Below are positions 929 through 9,561 of a stretch of 64,000 bases of DNA, in pieces. The stretch's first letter is position 1; each line of letters opens with the position of its first letter. This stretch comes from an uncultured archaeon (GTDB lineage: Archaea; Thermoplasmatota; Thermoplasmata; Thermoplasmatales; Thermoplasmataceae), in NCBI GenBank assembly GCA_000965745.1, contig CP009479.1:1856001-1920000 (forward strand), in the 5' to 3' direction. A program made the position numbers and the translations under genes. The notes beneath the pieces were generated by a model. It had not been told where the DNA came from, ran no database searches, and worked only from the letters and a program-made list of their open reading frames with translations.

Positions 929-1345
929 ATGCAGTGGAAGAGAGACGGGAACGATTTCATCGTCAAGGTGGAGAGAGGAGAGGATGTGAAGGGTTCCATA
1001 ATGGATGTGGTGCAGAAAAATAATGTTAAGGCCGGCTCAATCCTGTGGGCGGTAGGCATGATCCAGGACCTTGAAATAGGCTACTTCAATGGAAAGGAGT
1101 ATGAAAAGGAAAAATATGAGGGGCCACTGGAAGTTGTCTCTTTTCATGGTTCGATAGCAGAGAACGACCCCCGTATGCATATACATGTTTCCGTTGCTGA
1201 CAGAAGCCACGGTGTAGTAGGAGGCCATCTCTTTGAAGGTGTGGCGAACCCGCTTCTTGAAGTCCACATTCAAAAACTTGAGAATATTACTTTGAAGAGG
1301 AAGTACAGTGAGTCTTCCACCCTGAAGGAACTTGAAGTCAGCTGA
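929..1345 (+). CDS. PPC/DUF296 domain protein
   Basis: GEDV start, EVVSFHGSI, HIHVSVAD...GGHL motifs. Confidence 0.85.
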   Translation: MQWKRDGNDFIVKVERGEDVKGSIMDVVQKNNVKAGSILWAVGMIQDLEIGYFNGKEYEKEKYEGPLEVVSFHGSIAENDPRMHIHVSVADRSHGVVGGHLFEGVANPLLEVHIQKLENITLKRKYSESSTLKELEVS

Positions 1346-2375
1346 TGGGGCTGTATATCGAAGAGATAACCTGATCCACAATCCCCTTATCCAGGGAGAG
1401 GCGGTTCAGTTCATGCCTCATTTGCTCCAGCCCAAAACCATGCTCAGAGAGTGTTTCGGTAACACCCAGCTTGCGAATCAGGCCCTGCACAAGCTCATAA
1501 CTCTTCCCTGAAAGTTCTGAAGTGTTGTCTCCCCTGAACCCAAGCCTGTTTGCAAGGTCTGACAGGCTTTTCTTCTTCCTTTCCATGCAATAGTAGGCAG
1601 TGAGGGGGAGAACCACAGCAGCGATAAGTTCATCTGGCATGTCCATGGATTTCTTCAGGCTGTTCCTGATAGGTGTCATTGGATCCCTGCTGACGGAGTA
1701 CCCGTCCTCTTTTGAGTACCATGATGACAGGAAGCTTTCCATCCTTGATTCCATGCTCTGTCCGGGAAGATTTATTATAAGCCTTTCAAGGGATGAAAGA
1801 AGCAGGTCCTCAACCTCAGTGCTTATGTCGTCCCTCATCAGGTTTGAGAATGTGTAGTCCATGACGCTCAGGCCTGATGAGTACCAGATGGAAGCGTCTG
1901 TTTCGACGCTTGATTGCGGGTCAAGAATCACGGTTTCGGGAATGAGCGATGCCTCAGAAACATGGTTGATTTCATCGCCAATCCTGTACTCGGCCCAATC
2001 TGAGAATGAAGAGACCGTCAGAGTTGTAGGGATTGCCATATGGTGCGCTCCGTGTGCATAATAATATTTCAGGAGCTTTGATGACCATATGACACTGGCA
2101 TCGCCGACGGAGATTATGGAGTCGCATTCTTTGTTCCTGTACGCCTCGGTAAGATGCTCCACTTCCGGGAGCGGGGGGCCGTATGTTATCTCCCTGAATT
2201 CAGAATACCCATTTTCCAGCTCTTCGGTAAGTTTCCTGTAGAAGTTTGTGGACGAGTATCCTGTAGTGGAGACGATGAGAGGGTTACTGCTCCCCTTCTC
2301 CTTGATATATTCTGCTGCTGATTTGACTGTGTCGATGCCGTAAATGAGCTTTCTGCCATTGGACTGGACTGGCAT
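1338..2375 (-). CDS. degenerate iron-containing alcohol dehydrogenase/maleylacetate reductase-fold protein
   Basis: Fe-ADH skeleton (DSIISVG, AIPTTL, VILDP, LP..L..G) but GGGS is replaced by GDAS and the His metal ligands are absent; starts 4 nt after the hmgA stop. Confidence 0.7.
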   Translation of the reverse strand: MPVQSNGRKLIYGIDTVKSAAEYIKEKGSSNPLIVSTTGYSSTNFYRKLTEELENGYSEFREITYGPPLPEVEHLTEAYRNKECDSIISVGDASVIWSSKLLKYYYAHGAHHMAIPTTLTVSSFSDWAEYRIGDEINHVSEASLIPETVILDPQSSVETDASIWYSSGLSVMDYTFSNLMRDDISTEVEDLLLSSLERLIINLPGQSMESRMESFLSSWYSKEDGYSVSRDPMTPIRNSLKKSMDMPDELIAAVVLPLTAYYCMERKKKSLSDLANRLGFRGDNTSELSGKSYELVQGLIRKLGVTETLSEHGFGLEQMRHELNRLSLDKGIVDQVISSIYSPIS

Positions 2376-2379
2376 GCTT

Positions 2380-3525
2380 CTACTGATACCAGGAAGACAT
2401 ATACTTCTTGTCCTCTATTTCCGATCCTTCCCTGGTGACTTTCAGTGGTTTGTAAGCTTCTACCATGACGGCTATTTCGTCTGTCTCCTCCTTCCCTATG
2501 GAAGCGTCGACGGCTCCCGGCTGAGGACCATGAATGAGCCCCCTTACGTGCAGGGTCATGGAACCGGGGCCTATGCCCTTCCTGCTCATGAAGTTTCCAG
2601 ATGAATAGAATAGAACTTCATCTGTGTCGATGTTGCTATGATAGTATGAGATAGGTATGGAATGGGGGTGAAAATCGAATTTTCTTGGGAGGAATGTACC
2701 GACCATGAAAGAGGGCCCGCTGAAGGTCTCATGGACGGGTGGAGGCTGATGCAGTTTCCCAACGATAGGGGCCATAAGGCTCACGTTTATTGTGAACGGG
2801 TACAGATAGCCATCCCAGCCAACAACGTCCAAGGGGTTTCTGTCGCGCTCCTCTGAAATGTAATAATCGTCATAATCCACGAGCACAGTATACCTTCCAG
2901 CGTCATTGGAAGGTTCCTCCAGCACAGGTACCCTTATGTCCCTGGTATAATATGGCGTGCCTTCCTTGAGCTGGCCGTACTTGTTCAGGTATCTCCCCGG
3001 TATTGAAATTCGTTCCCTTGACTCCAGGTAGAAAAATTCCGAATTCATTTCATATTCCGCAGAGTAAGTTGTGCCCTTGGGGATGTAAACATAATCGCCC
3101 TTGCTGAACCCCAGGCTGCCCAGAACGCTCCTCAAAACACCCTTTCCCTCGTGGACAAAAAGAAGCTGGTCCCTAAGCGCGTGCCTGAAATAATTCTCCA
3201 TGGGTTTCTCGGGTTTCACCGTTCCCATTCTTACATCATCGTTGAACAGGACTGGCCTCCTTCCTGAAACCAGATCCCCTGATGGCTTGAAGAATGAGGT
3301 CGAGAAGTGCCTGTGAAGAAGTTCGTCGGTCGATTTTTCATTTATGGGCTCCTTCATTACTTTCGTGACTTTCTTTACCCTTGTTGGCTCACCCAGGTGG
3401 TACAACAATGAATATGGGCCGTCAAAACCCTCTTCGCCGAATAACTCCTCCTTGTATATCCTTGACCTGTCAATGTAAGTATGCCTGCTCTCAGGCACTT
3501 CCCCCTGCTTTACATAATACACCAT
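2380..3525 (-). CDS. hmgA: homogentisate 1,2-dioxygenase
   Basis: EELFGEEGFDGPYSLLYH, DVVGWDG, HQPPPVH, YYHSNIDTDEVLFY, HGPQPG; SD AGGTGA 4 nt before ATG. Confidence 0.92.
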   Translation of the reverse strand: MVYYVKQGEVPESRHTYIDRSRIYKEELFGEEGFDGPYSLLYHLGEPTRVKKVTKVMKEPINEKSTDELLHRHFSTSFFKPSGDLVSGRRPVLFNDDVRMGTVKPEKPMENYFRHALRDQLLFVHEGKGVLRSVLGSLGFSKGDYVYIPKGTTYSAEYEMNSEFFYLESRERISIPGRYLNKYGQLKEGTPYYTRDIRVPVLEEPSNDAGRYTVLVDYDDYYISEERDRNPLDVVGWDGYLYPFTINVSLMAPIVGKLHQPPPVHETFSGPSFMVGTFLPRKFDFHPHSIPISYYHSNIDTDEVLFYSSGNFMSRKGIGPGSMTLHVRGLIHGPQPGAVDASIGKEETDEIAVMVEAYKPLKVTREGSEIEDKKYMSSWYQ

Positions 3526-3533
3526 AATGTCAC

Positions 3534-4436
3534 CTACACAACTTTGCTGATTAATTTTCCCAGGGCGTCAGATTCAAACACGACTGTATCACCCCTGTTA
3601 AGCCAGCCATACTTCTCAGGGCCTAGTTCGAGGATACACCCGGTACCGACAGTCCCTGACATGATTACGTCACCAGGGAACAGGGTGACTTCATTCGATG
3701 CCCTCTCTATCATGTCTCCAAACCCCCAGTACATTGTCTTGAGATTGGCATCACTGTACTTCCTGCCGTTAACGTATCCCTGGATACTTATGTCAAATCT
3801 CCCACTTTTCTCTTCAAGGTCCCACAGTTCCCTTCCTGCGAGAATATGGGGGCCAAAGCTCGTCCCGAAATCTTTGCTCTTGGCCGGGCCAAGGTTGAGT
3901 TTCATCTCCTTCTTCTGCTCGTCACGGGCACTCCAGTCATTCATCAGGAATGCCCCGGCTATATGATCTGCTGCCCCGGTAGCTGAAATGTCCCTTCCCT
4001 CCTTTCCTATAACTACAGCGGCCTCGAGCTCAAAATCAAGCTGTCCGGTGTATCGCGGGTATCTCACATCCTCGCCTGACGGATACAGAGAGGAGGTTCC
4101 AGAGTAATAAAAAACGGGAATTTCGTACCATTCGGGAACCATTTCCAGTCCCCTGCTATTTCTGCCAGCCTTTACATGCTCTTCAAAGGCGTAGAAATCC
4201 CTGATCTGGTTTACCTTAGGAACCGGAATGTCATGCTGCCAGGGTTCCGGTACAACACCCCTTCCGCCTTTTGCGGCTTCAACAAGGTCGTTTTCATGGT
4301 GGAGGATTATGTCGTAGAACTGGTCTGATATTGCCTTCTCGTCAATCCCCATTATGGTGGAAATTGAGTGTGCGCTGCCTCCTTCGAAGATTACGGAAAG
4401 TGTCTGCCCATCTTTTCTTATTCTGCCGACCTTCAA
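3534..4436 (-). CDS. fumarylacetoacetate hydrolase family protein
   Basis: RDFYAFEEH, LDFELE, NDWSARD, KSKDF, PGDVIMSGT; lies between hppD and hmgA. Confidence 0.9.
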   Translation of the reverse strand: MKVGRIRKDGQTLSVIFEGGSAHSISTIMGIDEKAISDQFYDIILHHENDLVEAAKGGRGVVPEPWQHDIPVPKVNQIRDFYAFEEHVKAGRNSRGLEMVPEWYEIPVFYYSGTSSLYPSGEDVRYPRYTGQLDFELEAAVVIGKEGRDISATGAADHIAGAFLMNDWSARDEQKKEMKLNLGPAKSKDFGTSFGPHILAGRELWDLEEKSGRFDISIQGYVNGRKYSDANLKTMYWGFGDMIERASNEVTLFPGDVIMSGTVGTGCILELGPEKYGWLNRGDTVVFESDALGKLISKVV

Positions 4437-5525
4437 TCAGAGATTACCCCTTCTTGCCTGCTCCACTTCAATAGACTCGAACAGTGCCTTGAAGTTTCCC
4501 TTGCCGAAGGACCTTGCCCCCTTTCTCTGTATTATCTCATAGAAGAAAGTTGGCCTGTCCCCGGTTGGCTTGGTGAATATCTGAAGCAGATAACCGGATT
4601 CATCCCTGTCCACAAGTATCTTCAGGTCCCTGAGCTTCTCCACATTTTCATCTATTTCCCCGACACGCTGGTTCAGGGTATCATAATATATGTCCGGGGT
4701 GTCCAGAAACTCTATGCCGCGTTTCTTCAGGTCGGACACAGTTTTGACAATATCGTCGGTTTCAAGGGCTATGTGCTGAACGCCCGGGGAGTTGTAGTAA
4801 TCAAGGTACTCCTGTATCTGTGATTTCTTCATCCCGAGTGCAGGCTCGTTAATCGGGAACACTATCTTCCTGTCATTGTAATGGACAACCTTGGACCTGA
4901 GGGCCGAATATTTCGTTGAGATATCCTTATCGTCAAAGCTCATTAGCTGGTCGAATCCCAGGCCTTTGACATAGTAGTCAACCCATTTGTCCATAAGACT
5001 GTCCTCGACGTTTCCCACCGCGTGATCGACTTTTTTCAGGCCTATCGGGTCAAGCGTCCTGTCATACACCTCTTCAAATCCAGGCGGTATGCTGCCTTCA
5101 TATTCTGAAAAGTCAGTAATGGTATGGACTGTCTCGCCAAATGTTGGGAGGACTGCCTTCCTTATCCTGCCATTCTCCGTCTTCTGTTCCCTGACCTTAC
5201 CCGGCTTTACGAGGCCTCTTCCTTCAACATACTTTACTGTGTAGTCTATATTCGGCACAGCAAGTTCAACATCCTTGACCCCATCTCCGTGCACCCTCAT
5301 ATGATCGGCGATTGGCGACGAGGGATTGAGAAAAGAAGTGAAAATCATCCTGATTGAACTCTGTTCCATCAAATATGAAACTCGATCCCTGACACCGGTT
5401 TCAGGCCCTGAATATGCCCTGAACCTGAATCCCATGCCGTGTTCATGCATGAAGGCCCATTGCCTTGCCGATCCAACATAGAACTCGATGGTGTTAACAG
5501 AATCAAAGGCATTTTCATCTGTCAT
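4437..5525 (-). CDS. hppD: 4-hydroxyphenylpyruvate dioxygenase
   Basis: HGDGVKD, DHAVGNV, SQIQEYL, GVQHIAL, LLQIFTKP, FYEIIQRKG, FGKGNFKALFESIE. Confidence 0.95.
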   Translation of the reverse strand: MTDENAFDSVNTIEFYVGSARQWAFMHEHGMGFRFRAYSGPETGVRDRVSYLMEQSSIRMIFTSFLNPSSPIADHMRVHGDGVKDVELAVPNIDYTVKYVEGRGLVKPGKVREQKTENGRIRKAVLPTFGETVHTITDFSEYEGSIPPGFEEVYDRTLDPIGLKKVDHAVGNVEDSLMDKWVDYYVKGLGFDQLMSFDDKDISTKYSALRSKVVHYNDRKIVFPINEPALGMKKSQIQEYLDYYNSPGVQHIALETDDIVKTVSDLKKRGIEFLDTPDIYYDTLNQRVGEIDENVEKLRDLKILVDRDESGYLLQIFTKPTGDRPTFFYEIIQRKGARSFGKGNFKALFESIEVEQARRGNL

Positions 5526-6414: not shown

Positions 6415-9400
6415 TCACAATAGCCTTCTATCATCAAGGATCTTGCCGTTCCGGTTTATTCTCTCAATTGCCTCGCTTATTGCCCTGTCCAGTTGGGGGT
6501 CCGACCCTTCTGCAAAGTTTTCGGGTGGATATTCCACCTCAATTGTCGGATCGGTACCATAGTTTTCAACATTCCATCCGACATCCTTGAACCAGAATGC
6601 GTATTGGGGCTGGGTGATTATGGTTCCGTCGACGAGATTGTGTCTTGGGTCAATACCCACGACACCGCCCCATGTTCGTGTCCCTATCAGCGGGCCGATA
6701 CCGTACAGCTTGAAGGAATGGCTGAAAATATCGCCGTCCGACCCGGCGAATTCATTGGTAACGGCAACTATTGGCCCATTCACGGAATATTGGGGGTAGT
6801 GCTGAAGCTTTCCCTTCCTTGGTTTGTCGAACCCAATAATCTTGCGGTTCAGCTTTTCCAGGATAAGTTCTGAAACATGCCCGCCCCCATTGTACCTTAC
6901 ATCCACAATAAGCCCCTCATGGCTGGATTCCTCGGGGAGAAGCCTGTGGAATTCGTTGAAGCCGTTCGGCCCCATGTCGGGAATATGGAGGTATCCTACC
7001 TTTCCGCCACTCTTTTCATGGACATACTTTCTGTTACTTTCAACCCATGATCTGTATAAGAGCATCTTATCCTGCACGAGAGTCCTGACAAAAGTCGTGA
7101 ATTTCCTTGTTCCCGTGTTTATACCGAGGATTGCATCCTCCCCCGCGTGATTGACAAGAGCCGCGTGGGGCGTGTATGTTTCGGTAAGCTTCTTGCCATT
7201 GATAGTTTCAATGACGTACCCTTCCCTGATCTCTTCATGAGCCATCAGAAGTGGCGATTTCTCATTCTCGTTTGACGGGTTTCCAAGGTAAATATGCCTG
7301 ATCGCATACCCATCTACTGTGTATTCCAGGTCGGCGCCAAGTTTTCCGACTGAAAACGCACCCTCCTGGGAAATTTCCGGGTTAATCTCGTATGCGTGGG
7401 ATGTGCCGAGTTCCCCCTGCAGTTCCCTTATGACGTCGGAGAGCTCGTACCTGGATCCGATCCTGTCCAGAAGGGGTTCGTATTTCCTGTATTCGTCCAG
7501 CCAGGAGTCACATACCTTTTCACTGTTCCAGTAATTTTCCCTCATGAGCCTCCATGCCTCCCTGAACATCTGTTTCCATTCCTCGGCAGGCTCTATCCTG
7601 CATTTTATCCTCCCCGTATCTATATAGCCTGAGGACCTTGAGGGGGATTCCTCGCCGGACATTTTCTCCTCAGTCTTATCTGGCTTGATCACCCTGAACA
7701 GTGAAGCTGCTTCAACCATGATGCTTTTCAAGTCCCCGCTCAACACTGCAGATGAGACGCCGGATATGACCGTGATAGTGTTTCCGTCCTCAAGACTGTA
7801 GGCTATAAGTTCGCCGTTCGGCCGGCCAGGCTTGCCAAACAATGACGTGCCCATTGATCCTTCTACGGGGAATTTCAAAAACATGACACGGTCTTCAGTG
7901 GCGAGAAGTTGTGAGTAATTGGAGCTGCCAACGGGAAAGGGCTCTGACCTGTACTCAATCCCTTCAAGTTCCACAGAAGCGTCAACCTCCTCTTCTTTAT
8001 CCTCTTTCCTGAACGTATCAGGAACCACCCGGAAGGGTGAGCTGACATCTTTTCTGAGTGCAGCAGCATAAGGCTTAGATGCGGTCGGGTACCCGAGATC
8101 GAATACTACTTTGTCGTATACGGGGTCAAGTGTTCTTCTTGAAAGGTAGTATAGATAGCGGTTCTTTGGGTCAAAATACGGGGAATAGTCCACAGATCCG
8201 GTGGTTGTGACCTGGCACTTCTCCCCTTTCTCAATGTCGGCGATCATAATGACGCTGCCCTCACCTTCTGTGGGGCTTGTGTAAGACAGGAATTTGCCGT
8301 TGAAGTTCCATACTGGATCTCCAATGATTCCATTTTTATTCTCATCCAGAAGGCGCACCTCCCCAGACGGCACTCCAGCCAGAAACAACTGGAACCTGTT
8401 GTTCGATATTGCCAGATTTTCGCCGTCTGGCGATGGGGCCAGGTATTCGATTGTACCGAAATCGCCCTCCAGATATTTCAGTGAAAAATCACGCACATCG
8501 AAAATGAATATCCTTTCTTCAGGTCCGTCGTCGATGACTCCGGCAACCTTCCGCCGGATGTTTCCAAGAAAACAGGCCAGCCTGATCCTCCCGGGAACGT
8601 AGTTTGATACTTCGACCACCGGGCCTTCCCAGTTTCCCATCGCGAAAAGGTGTCCGCGCACCACATAAAGGGATGCCTCACCATTGTGGTTGAGATCGTA
8701 TTCGGTCATAAATTTCTCATTTTCAACGAACCTTGGCAACTTCTTTCTTCCCGTTTGTCGCGTGTCTATTTCTACTTTTGAAGCTTTTCCGTTTTCCGGT
8801 GAGAACTCGTAGATGTCGCCACCGTTCTGAAATACGATTTTAGACCCGTCCCCTTTGGCATTTCTCACATAATACCTGTCGAAATCGGTGTGTTTCCTCA
8901 GTCCCCTGCCATCAAGATCAACGGAGTAGAGATTGCCATGCCCCTCGTGGTCAGATATGAAGTACAATCTGTCCTTCAGGAGGACGGGAGAATTTATGTT
9001 TGAGTCCATTTCCAGGAATTTGCTGAATTTTTTTCCGCCGTCAGACGAGATCCATATCTTTCCTCTTAAGCCACCTTTGTATCTTTTCCAGAATGTCAGA
9101 TCATTGGTGTTTCTCCCCAGGAATATTGTCTGCCCCCGGTAGATTATTGACGTCGCGGGACCGTAGCCGACTGGAACGGGGTACCCTCCCATCAGGTCAA
9201 GAGTAAACAGTTCGTTTACCCTGCTGAATGGGTTCTTCATGTCCGATGAAACCACGAGTTTACCATCGGGAGTCCACCCGGCAATATCAGTTCCTGGTGA
9301 GCCCATGTGTGTGAGCTGCCTGATCTCTCCTCCCTCTGTTGGTATGGCAAATATTTCTGAGACGGTGGAATTTTCTCCCCTTTTCAATACAAATGCTATG

Positions 9401-9561
9401 TTTTTGCCGTCCGGGGAGAAAGAAGGGCTAGCTATTACACCTGAATTTGAAACAATTCTTGCAATACTTGCCTTCTTAGTGTCATGCAGCCAGAGGTCGT
9501 CCTCTGATGTGAAAACTATGTTGTTTCCTGAAACAGCCGGGTATGAATAATAAGAGGCCAT
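6415..9561 (-). CDS. tri: tricorn protease (S41)
   Basis: 1048 aa, beta-propeller repeats, WKRYKGG, GELGTSHAYE, DVRYNGGG, AGSDGDIF, GTRTWGGVVGI, VENYGTDP. Confidence 0.95.
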   Translation of the reverse strand: MASYYSYPAVSGNNIVFTSEDDLWLHDTKKASIARIVSNSGVIASPSFSPDGKNIAFVLKRGENSTVSEIFAIPTEGGEIRQLTHMGSPGTDIAGWTPDGKLVVSSDMKNPFSRVNELFTLDLMGGYPVPVGYGPATSIIYRGQTIFLGRNTNDLTFWKRYKGGLRGKIWISSDGGKKFSKFLEMDSNINSPVLLKDRLYFISDHEGHGNLYSVDLDGRGLRKHTDFDRYYVRNAKGDGSKIVFQNGGDIYEFSPENGKASKVEIDTRQTGRKKLPRFVENEKFMTEYDLNHNGEASLYVVRGHLFAMGNWEGPVVEVSNYVPGRIRLACFLGNIRRKVAGVIDDGPEERIFIFDVRDFSLKYLEGDFGTIEYLAPSPDGENLAISNNRFQLFLAGVPSGEVRLLDENKNGIIGDPVWNFNGKFLSYTSPTEGEGSVIMIADIEKGEKCQVTTTGSVDYSPYFDPKNRYLYYLSRRTLDPVYDKVVFDLGYPTASKPYAAALRKDVSSPFRVVPDTFRKEDKEEEVDASVELEGIEYRSEPFPVGSSNYSQLLATEDRVMFLKFPVEGSMGTSLFGKPGRPNGELIAYSLEDGNTITVISGVSSAVLSGDLKSIMVEAASLFRVIKPDKTEEKMSGEESPSRSSGYIDTGRIKCRIEPAEEWKQMFREAWRLMRENYWNSEKVCDSWLDEYRKYEPLLDRIGSRYELSDVIRELQGELGTSHAYEINPEISQEGAFSVGKLGADLEYTVDGYAIRHIYLGNPSNENEKSPLLMAHEEIREGYVIETINGKKLTETYTPHAALVNHAGEDAILGINTGTRKFTTFVRTLVQDKMLLYRSWVESNRKYVHEKSGGKVGYLHIPDMGPNGFNEFHRLLPEESSHEGLIVDVRYNGGGHVSELILEKLNRKIIGFDKPRKGKLQHYPQYSVNGPIVAVTNEFAGSDGDIFSHSFKLYGIGPLIGTRTWGGVVGIDPRHNLVDGTIITQPQYAFWFKDVGWNVENYGTDPTIEVEYPPENFAEGSDPQLDRAISEAIERINRNGKILDDRRLL

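Follow-up and report, generated by a model that had tools for sequence, protein, structure and literature searches.

A probable pseudoenzyme of the maleylacetate reductase family in the homogentisate operon of an archaeal genus

We examined a 64,000 nt stretch of DNA (CP009479.1, positions 1,856,001 to 1,920,000; here called the window) from an uncultured archaeon of the Thermoplasmataceae, in which a homogentisate operon ends in a gene for a 345 aa protein (1338..2375, minus strand) that resembles the maleylacetate reductases (MARs), enzymes that share the iron-containing alcohol dehydrogenase (Fe-ADH) superfamily's fold. We conclude, with a probability of roughly 0.6, that this protein is a retained, catalytically dead pseudoenzyme with a non-catalytic role. 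What is new here is a whole genus in which neither the NAD-binding glycines nor any basic substrate residue of the family is left and the cleft has no conserved Cys. The textbook pathway has a gap where organisms that lack glutathione must process maleylacetoacetate, and an earlier note on this DNA had proposed that the gene may fill it, either as a new maleylacetoacetate isomerase or as a substrate-binding pseudoenzyme. The pseudoenzyme part of that proposal is probably right, as the motifs are lost and the reading frame is under selection; the gap itself is more likely filled by reduction, by the intact form of the same gene family.

A PF00465 match (E 6e-17; 62 bits against a cut-off of 31) places the protein in the Fe-ADH superfamily, with its two-domain dehydroquinate (DHQ)-synthase-like fold. 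The structure model has a pLDDT of 89 and superposes on many superfamily members with TM scores of ~0.8. The closest solved structures by both sequence and fold are MARs, namely 9PH0 MAR1 (E 8e-15), 3W5S and 3HL0, in agreement with the earlier assignment to a MAR-related Fe-ADH fold. While fold and top sequence matches are common to the window protein and the known MARs (EC 1.3.1.32, cd08177; GraC 3W5S, MacA 3HL0, HxqD 3JZD, PcpE and 9PH0 MAR1), the MAR motifs have been lost from it.

These losses were located by alignment with intact orthologues from approximately 60 relatives, which keep QH, GGGS-x-x-D, PTTLS, R-x-x-D-H, SH and PHG. The QH loop is gone, with ITYGPP in its place (2172..2189, minus strand, as for all codons given here), and its His has become Gly in 13/13 members of the genus. 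At aa 91–94 (2094..2105) the NAD-binding GGGS reads GDAS, as had been noted before, and the conserved Asp thereafter is W97; this NAD(P)H-binding motif of the MARs is lost genus-wide. SVMDY (1854..1868) replaces R-x-x-D-H, so that the MAR-type Arg is gone and the equivalent of the essential His172 of PcpE is a Tyr. TPIRN (1662..1676) replaces H-x-I-G-K/R and PDE (1629..1637) replaces PHG; in the ITSC that comes next, the invariant Cys has gone as well (A253). The counterparts of PcpE K140, H172, H237, H241 and H251 are I136, Y174, T234, N238 and D248. The earlier note had emphasized the loss of metal ligands. It was right about the three His positions, which are Y174, T234 and D248, but the Asp of its 'DY' (D173) is not the metal Asp, which corresponds to S170; none of the Fe-ADH ligands Asp, His, His and His is kept. 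MARs bind no metal and have Asn or Arg at the metal-Asp position (PMC5125639), so the loss of metal ligands is by itself uninformative, and the losses of NAD and substrate residues are the informative ones.

It is very improbable that the window protein retains weak NAD(P)H-dependent reductase activity. Its fold is intact, and most of the genus has retained PTT and the Lys that follows the glycine loop, but the glycine loop is blocked by Asp or Asn, the Trp and Tyr replacements at positions 97 and 174 stand against catalysis, and two members have lost PTT as well.

Forty-nine positions that are conserved among the intact orthologues vary within the genus, including all of the NAD and basic substrate positions, and the degenerate proteins are more acidic (mean K+R-D-E of -16.7, versus -4.5 in intact orthologues). 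The cleft Cys that is invariant in intact orthologues is gone. The only Cys invariant in the genus, C84, lies before a core strand, and a Cys pair of the maleate-isomerase type is absent. Given the genus-wide loss of these positions, of the cleft Cys and of positive charge, a site for a dianionic maleyl substrate or for thiol isomerization is not apparent. With the active site lost, the window protein is therefore unlikely to be a new isomerase, and a loss confined to one genus, whose relatives have the orthologue intact, does not fit that proposal either. The suggestion that it binds maleylacetoacetate fares no better, as all basic residues for the substrate have gone.

Slightly less improbable than an isomerase, though still doubtful, is that the protein has gained another activity, as a catalyst or a sensor of small molecules, which has nothing to do with maleyl compounds and would use the remodelled acidic cleft (D92, D126, E129 and D231). 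Renewed constraint after a long stem branch, the near fixation of G66, D231 and R237, and the existence of Fe-ADH-fold regulators (ErcA) favour it, but most of the replaced cleft positions are unfixed (D/N/G at 92, D/N/G at 126, E/S at 129). ErcA of Pseudomonas, a non-catalytic Fe-ADH-fold protein, resembles the proposed pseudoenzyme in keeping the scaffold for a role other than catalysis; the window protein scores only 60 bits with the ErcA model, for which the cut-off is 550.

No intact MAR paralogue that could act as a partner of the dead copy was found in the window genome. Among the other PF00465 matches considered as a second intact copy, one is glycerol-1-phosphate dehydrogenase-like and a third is weak. 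In two other genomes, G107 and G108, an ordinary Fe-ADH that binds metal (L204:1393-2935 and L205:1270-2811) is encoded beside a 134 aa SCP2-looking gene, and the window genome has no such Fe-ADH. The top feature match in the ESM Atlas was a cluster of 339 aa hypothetical proteins from Bacillota, with 14% Fe-ADH matches, which is possibly another degenerate Fe-ADH family.

The degenerate clade comprises 12 proteins sharing 41–67% identity, with the frame open in all of them, and the copies in G108 and G109. It is monophyletic, with a stem of ~1.3 changes per site, and matches the intact family over its full length in a profile comparison (E 5e-65). Grouping it with the genera that the hmgA tree places as its sisters was not rejected (p-AU 0.42). 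By these comparisons, the window gene is an orthologue of the intact MAR-like gene, and the active site has been lost in one whole genus.

The gene is not a pseudogene, as the open frame is under purifying selection, and the neutral decay that would have undermined the earlier proposal was not seen. The ratio of non-synonymous to synonymous substitution rates (dN/dS) in the clade is 0.15, which fits better than dN/dS = 1 by 416 log-likelihood units, and on the window's own branch it is 0.09; for comparison, intact orthologues have 0.05–0.08 and hmgA from the clade's genomes has 0.058, all being approximate because synonymous sites are near saturation. Thus, catalytic residues have been lost while fold and reading frame remain under purifying selection, as expected of a pseudoenzyme. 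Thirty-eight positions, around residues 67–70, 101–112, 190–209 and 277–302, are newly conserved in the clade. In this fold, the N-terminal strand and the 190–209 helices would lie at the dimer interface. Most likely, the dead protein persists in a folded, probably dimeric state and has a binding role exerted through the newly conserved surface residues, and its binding partner could lie outside the homogentisate route.

Alternatively, the gene could be a functionless relic on its way to loss, still translated, with selection purging only changes that cause misfolding. We consider this unlikely, though it is the strongest of the competing explanations. It would account for a dN/dS roughly threefold the values for intact orthologues and hmgA, for cleft residues that are free to vary, for clean deletion of the gene in several lineages and for further relaxed selection on one branch (L118, below). 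However, the frame has persisted across a genus that has diverged to 41% identity even though deletion is evidently easy, 38 positions are newly conserved, and in L118 the frame has outlasted the decay of the genes upstream.

L118 is a Logan contig (the P0010 locus) in which hppD, FAH and hmgA are reduced to decayed remnants of ~400 bp in their original order (L118:348-747), with the degenerate gene behind them in an intact frame. In the hppD remnant, which contains stops and frameshifts, 29% of the first and second codon positions that do not vary elsewhere have changed. The degenerate frame is open for 350 codons, for which the chance under neutrality is 0.0005 at 0.2 substitutions per site (simulation). 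At a second locus, L112:3-1840, a partly eroded reductase-like gene (P0013) has an IS605 transposase upstream, where hmgA and the rest of the operon would be. One tree model joined P0013 to the degenerate clade as an early member, but a mixture model and the neighbouring genes place it in genus g8, so its erosion is probably independent. Together, L118 and L112 suggest that the role kept by the degenerate gene is not the homogentisate step.

Linkage of the MAR-like gene to the pathway was surveyed in 169 genomes of the order, with presence of the gene called at E < 1e-20. The gene is associated with hmgA far beyond chance: 64/65 genomes that carry it have hmgA, and it was found in 0/68 genomes that lack hmgA. 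In the exception, G109, the MAR-like gene is at a contig end and hppD-FAH is at the end of another contig. By the coordinates, the gene lies directly after hmgA in 61 genomes and is split from it between contigs in three more, which bears out the earlier claim that it belongs to the homogentisate operon. The four-gene unit is also preserved in a second family, where its flanks differ, and the same operon is present in soil Bathyarchaeia, while the homologues in Chloroflexota are unlinked to hmgA. A further 36 genomes have hmgA without the MAR-like gene, which has been cleanly deleted in several lineages, and no replacement gene was found in the operon at the 20 of these loci that were inspected. 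G118 has a second FAH-hmgA locus that lacks the reductase gene (L303, G118:C54). The hmgA gene of G140 is in several frames (G140:C4:93486-94632; a 50% complete assembly), and G095 and G149 have a split FAH (L090 and L106); either sequencing errors or genuine decay could account for this.

The earlier note had also pointed to the lack of maleylacetoacetate isomerase, and neither maiA (TIGR01262) nor MDMPI (PF11716) was found in any of the 169 genomes (0/169). The window genome, which is 99% complete, has no match to GST_N_3, GCS2 or GSH-S_ATP. Elsewhere, GST-zeta MaiA/HmgC or MDMPI of the mycothiol/bacillithiol type fill the HmgA-to-FAH step that stands empty here; the window protein does not match the profiles of either family, has an unrelated fold and has no thiol-cofactor site. 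As 36 genomes have hmgA without the MAR-like gene and none has maiA or MDMPI, the maleylacetoacetate step is dispensable, and one relative (L118) keeps the gene after hppD, FAH and hmgA have decayed, which together argue against the window protein filling the missing step. It is improbable that the protein is a glutathione-independent maleylacetoacetate cis-trans isomerase or carries maleylacetoacetate to FAH. Its tight operon position, the purifying selection on it, and the absence of maiA, MDMPI and maleate-isomerase-family genes from the genus would suit such a function, as would an FAH of the type (F/A, below) that occurs where the reductase is absent. Set against this are a cleft with no conserved nucleophile, the exchange of basic residues for acidic ones, and the two observations just given, retention after pathway decay and operons that run without such a gene.

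Other candidates for the step were considered and set aside. An Asp/Glu-racemase-family gene found in 4/4 genomes of the genus is of the aspartate-racemase type rather than a maleate isomerase and does not track loss of the reductase. PF17645 (maleate-isomerase family) matches were found only in genera g2, g5 and g14, with none in the window's genus, and have one Cys. The LeuC/HacA hydratases, a potential maleate sink, are encoded here, but are patchily distributed and unrelated to reductase status. L254:1225-1896 and L261:1090-1740 are arylmalonate-decarboxylase/maleate-isomerase-like genes with a single Cys, found only in g2, g5 and g14, which are genera without the reductase gene.

The intact orthologues have these features of MARs as invariant alignment columns: GGGS, an Arg in place of the metal Asp, and His at PcpE positions 172, 237 and 251. 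That Arg is the MAR hallmark. The LHHKLCH signature (His at GraC 243, Lys at PcpE 238) is replaced by S-H-x-I-G-K/R; the fungal-type MAR1, which is the top PDB match of the intact family (E 3e-47), keeps the second His of the signature. Maleylacetoacetate has the same cis-enone as maleylacetate, whose C=C bond MAR reduces, although known MARs work in hydroxyquinol and chlorocatechol routes and not downstream of hmgA. The intact enzyme of most Thermoplasmatales and soil Bathyarchaeia, which would be metal-independent, probably reduces maleylacetoacetate at its C=C bond, at the expense of NAD(P)H, to succinylacetoacetate, which FAH would then cut to succinate and acetoacetate. Succinylacetoacetate is otherwise a by-product of tyrosinaemia. 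Human FAH has been modelled to accommodate it, and cleavage to succinate and acetoacetate has been put forward as a hypothesis (PMC5108417). Such a route requires neither isomerase nor glutathione, and we consider a reductive bypass by the intact orthologues, in place of the missing isomerase, to be the probable solution in those organisms. A literature search of incomplete coverage found no paper describing this operon gene. One bacterial intact relative, P0021 (L115:5149-7122), is directly after an MDMPI/DinB-family gene in a xanthine-dehydrogenase-like cluster.

For the window's own genus, and for lineages in which the gene has been deleted, the route would run without the MAR-like gene, and we infer that FAH handles maleylacetoacetate without the window protein. 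FAH residues 109 and 185 were scored in 95 genomes. The window FAH has F109 (4110..4112, minus strand) and A185 (3882..3884, minus strand), where most genomes with an intact reductase have Tyr and Ser. Y109/S185 was found in 47 genomes with an intact gene and in three without one, all of them from g17, where other members have it intact. F109/A185 was found in 32 genomes without the gene, three with a dead copy and five with an intact gene, and thus in 35/35 scored gene-less or degenerate genomes outside g17. Comparisons of sister groups agree (g1 versus g8 and g18; g9 versus g10). It is suggestive that, in these sequences, F109/A185 goes with loss or decay of the reductase gene and Y/S with an intact gene. 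The maiA-less homogentisate operons of Bacillota and Chloroflexota have the same short FAH type, with F109 and Ala or Gly at 185, and no glutathione isomerase, but differ in that nearly all of the fetched loci have no MAR-like gene alongside. PMC9338888 cites Crawford 1976 for a glutathione-independent route to maleate and acetoacetate in a Bacillus strain. The likeliest route here would be either direct hydrolysis of maleylacetoacetate by the F109/A185-type FAH, yielding maleate and acetoacetate, the products cited for the Bacillus strain, or chemical isomerization catalysed by cell thiols before FAH acts.

A wider picture is more tentative. It may be that an undescribed archaeal reductive route exists with a co-tuned FAH, and that a second, non-catalytic job of the reductase explains its retention after loss of the active site or of the pathway in two lineages. 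Besides the near-saturation of synonymous sites, several observations weigh against our interpretation. The dN/dS on the L118 branch is 0.30, indicating weaker selection, yet still below 1. L118 and L112 are 2–3 kb contigs from one sample, so the organisms may have an intact operon elsewhere. The absence of the MAR-like gene from all 68 GTDB genomes that lack hmgA speaks against a strong pathway-independent role. Bathyarchaeia, g13 and g15 have an intact reductase yet an F/A-type FAH, and covariation of FAH with the reductase was not significant in an independent-pairs test (two supported pairs, p 0.5). The reaction of the intact orthologues is not guaranteed, given Lys/Arg at the position of GraC His243 and no HHKLCH signature.

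Within the order, the reductase-like gene is found intact, as a dead copy or cleanly deleted, a natural three-state series in which every state comes with its own FAH. This series bears on whether succinylacetoacetate is a normal archaeal intermediate and on whether maleylacetoacetate is cleaved directly by short FAHs. The dead copy is also a clean case of the transition from enzyme to pseudoenzyme, with intact sister genera available for comparison.

All four genes of the operon are on the minus strand and, as described earlier, are packed with gaps of 0, 8 and 4 nt in the order hppD-FAH-hmgA-MAR-like gene. The first, hppD (4437..5525), encodes a 362 aa 4-hydroxyphenylpyruvate dioxygenase (TIGR01263, 385.8 bits against a cut-off of 277). 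It is followed by the short-type fumarylacetoacetate hydrolase gene FAH (3534..4436; 300 aa, TTG start; PF01557), whose product has mammalian FAH as its top PDB match and has all of the catalytic and metal residues (D80, H87, E136, E138, D167, R171 and K188). The 381 aa homogentisate 1,2-dioxygenase encoded by hmgA (2380..3525) was recognized by PF20510, a weak TIGR01015 match and invariant columns, and H259, H296, E303 and H332 are all present. These three genes are strongly constrained (dN/dS 0.03–0.07; hppD 0.034 in the window's genus). A scan of the locus for promoters and terminators yielded nothing informative.

Downstream, a convergent PCC-domain gene (929..1345, plus strand; PF03479) overlaps the 3' end of the MAR-like gene by 8 nt. 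It is also found at loci from which the reductase gene has been deleted and is mentioned for context only. On the other side of the operon, a gene for a predicted 1048 aa tricorn-like protease (6415-9561) lies between hemQ and thiI, which are neighbours with no intervening gene in mapped relatives. A heme-oxygenase-like iron redox gene (PF14518) is near the operon in 24/44 mapped loci, right after hmgA in g2, g5 and g14 and right before hppD in g34 and g36; in the window genome it is found at G000:C1:1849504-1850172, ~6 kb before the window.

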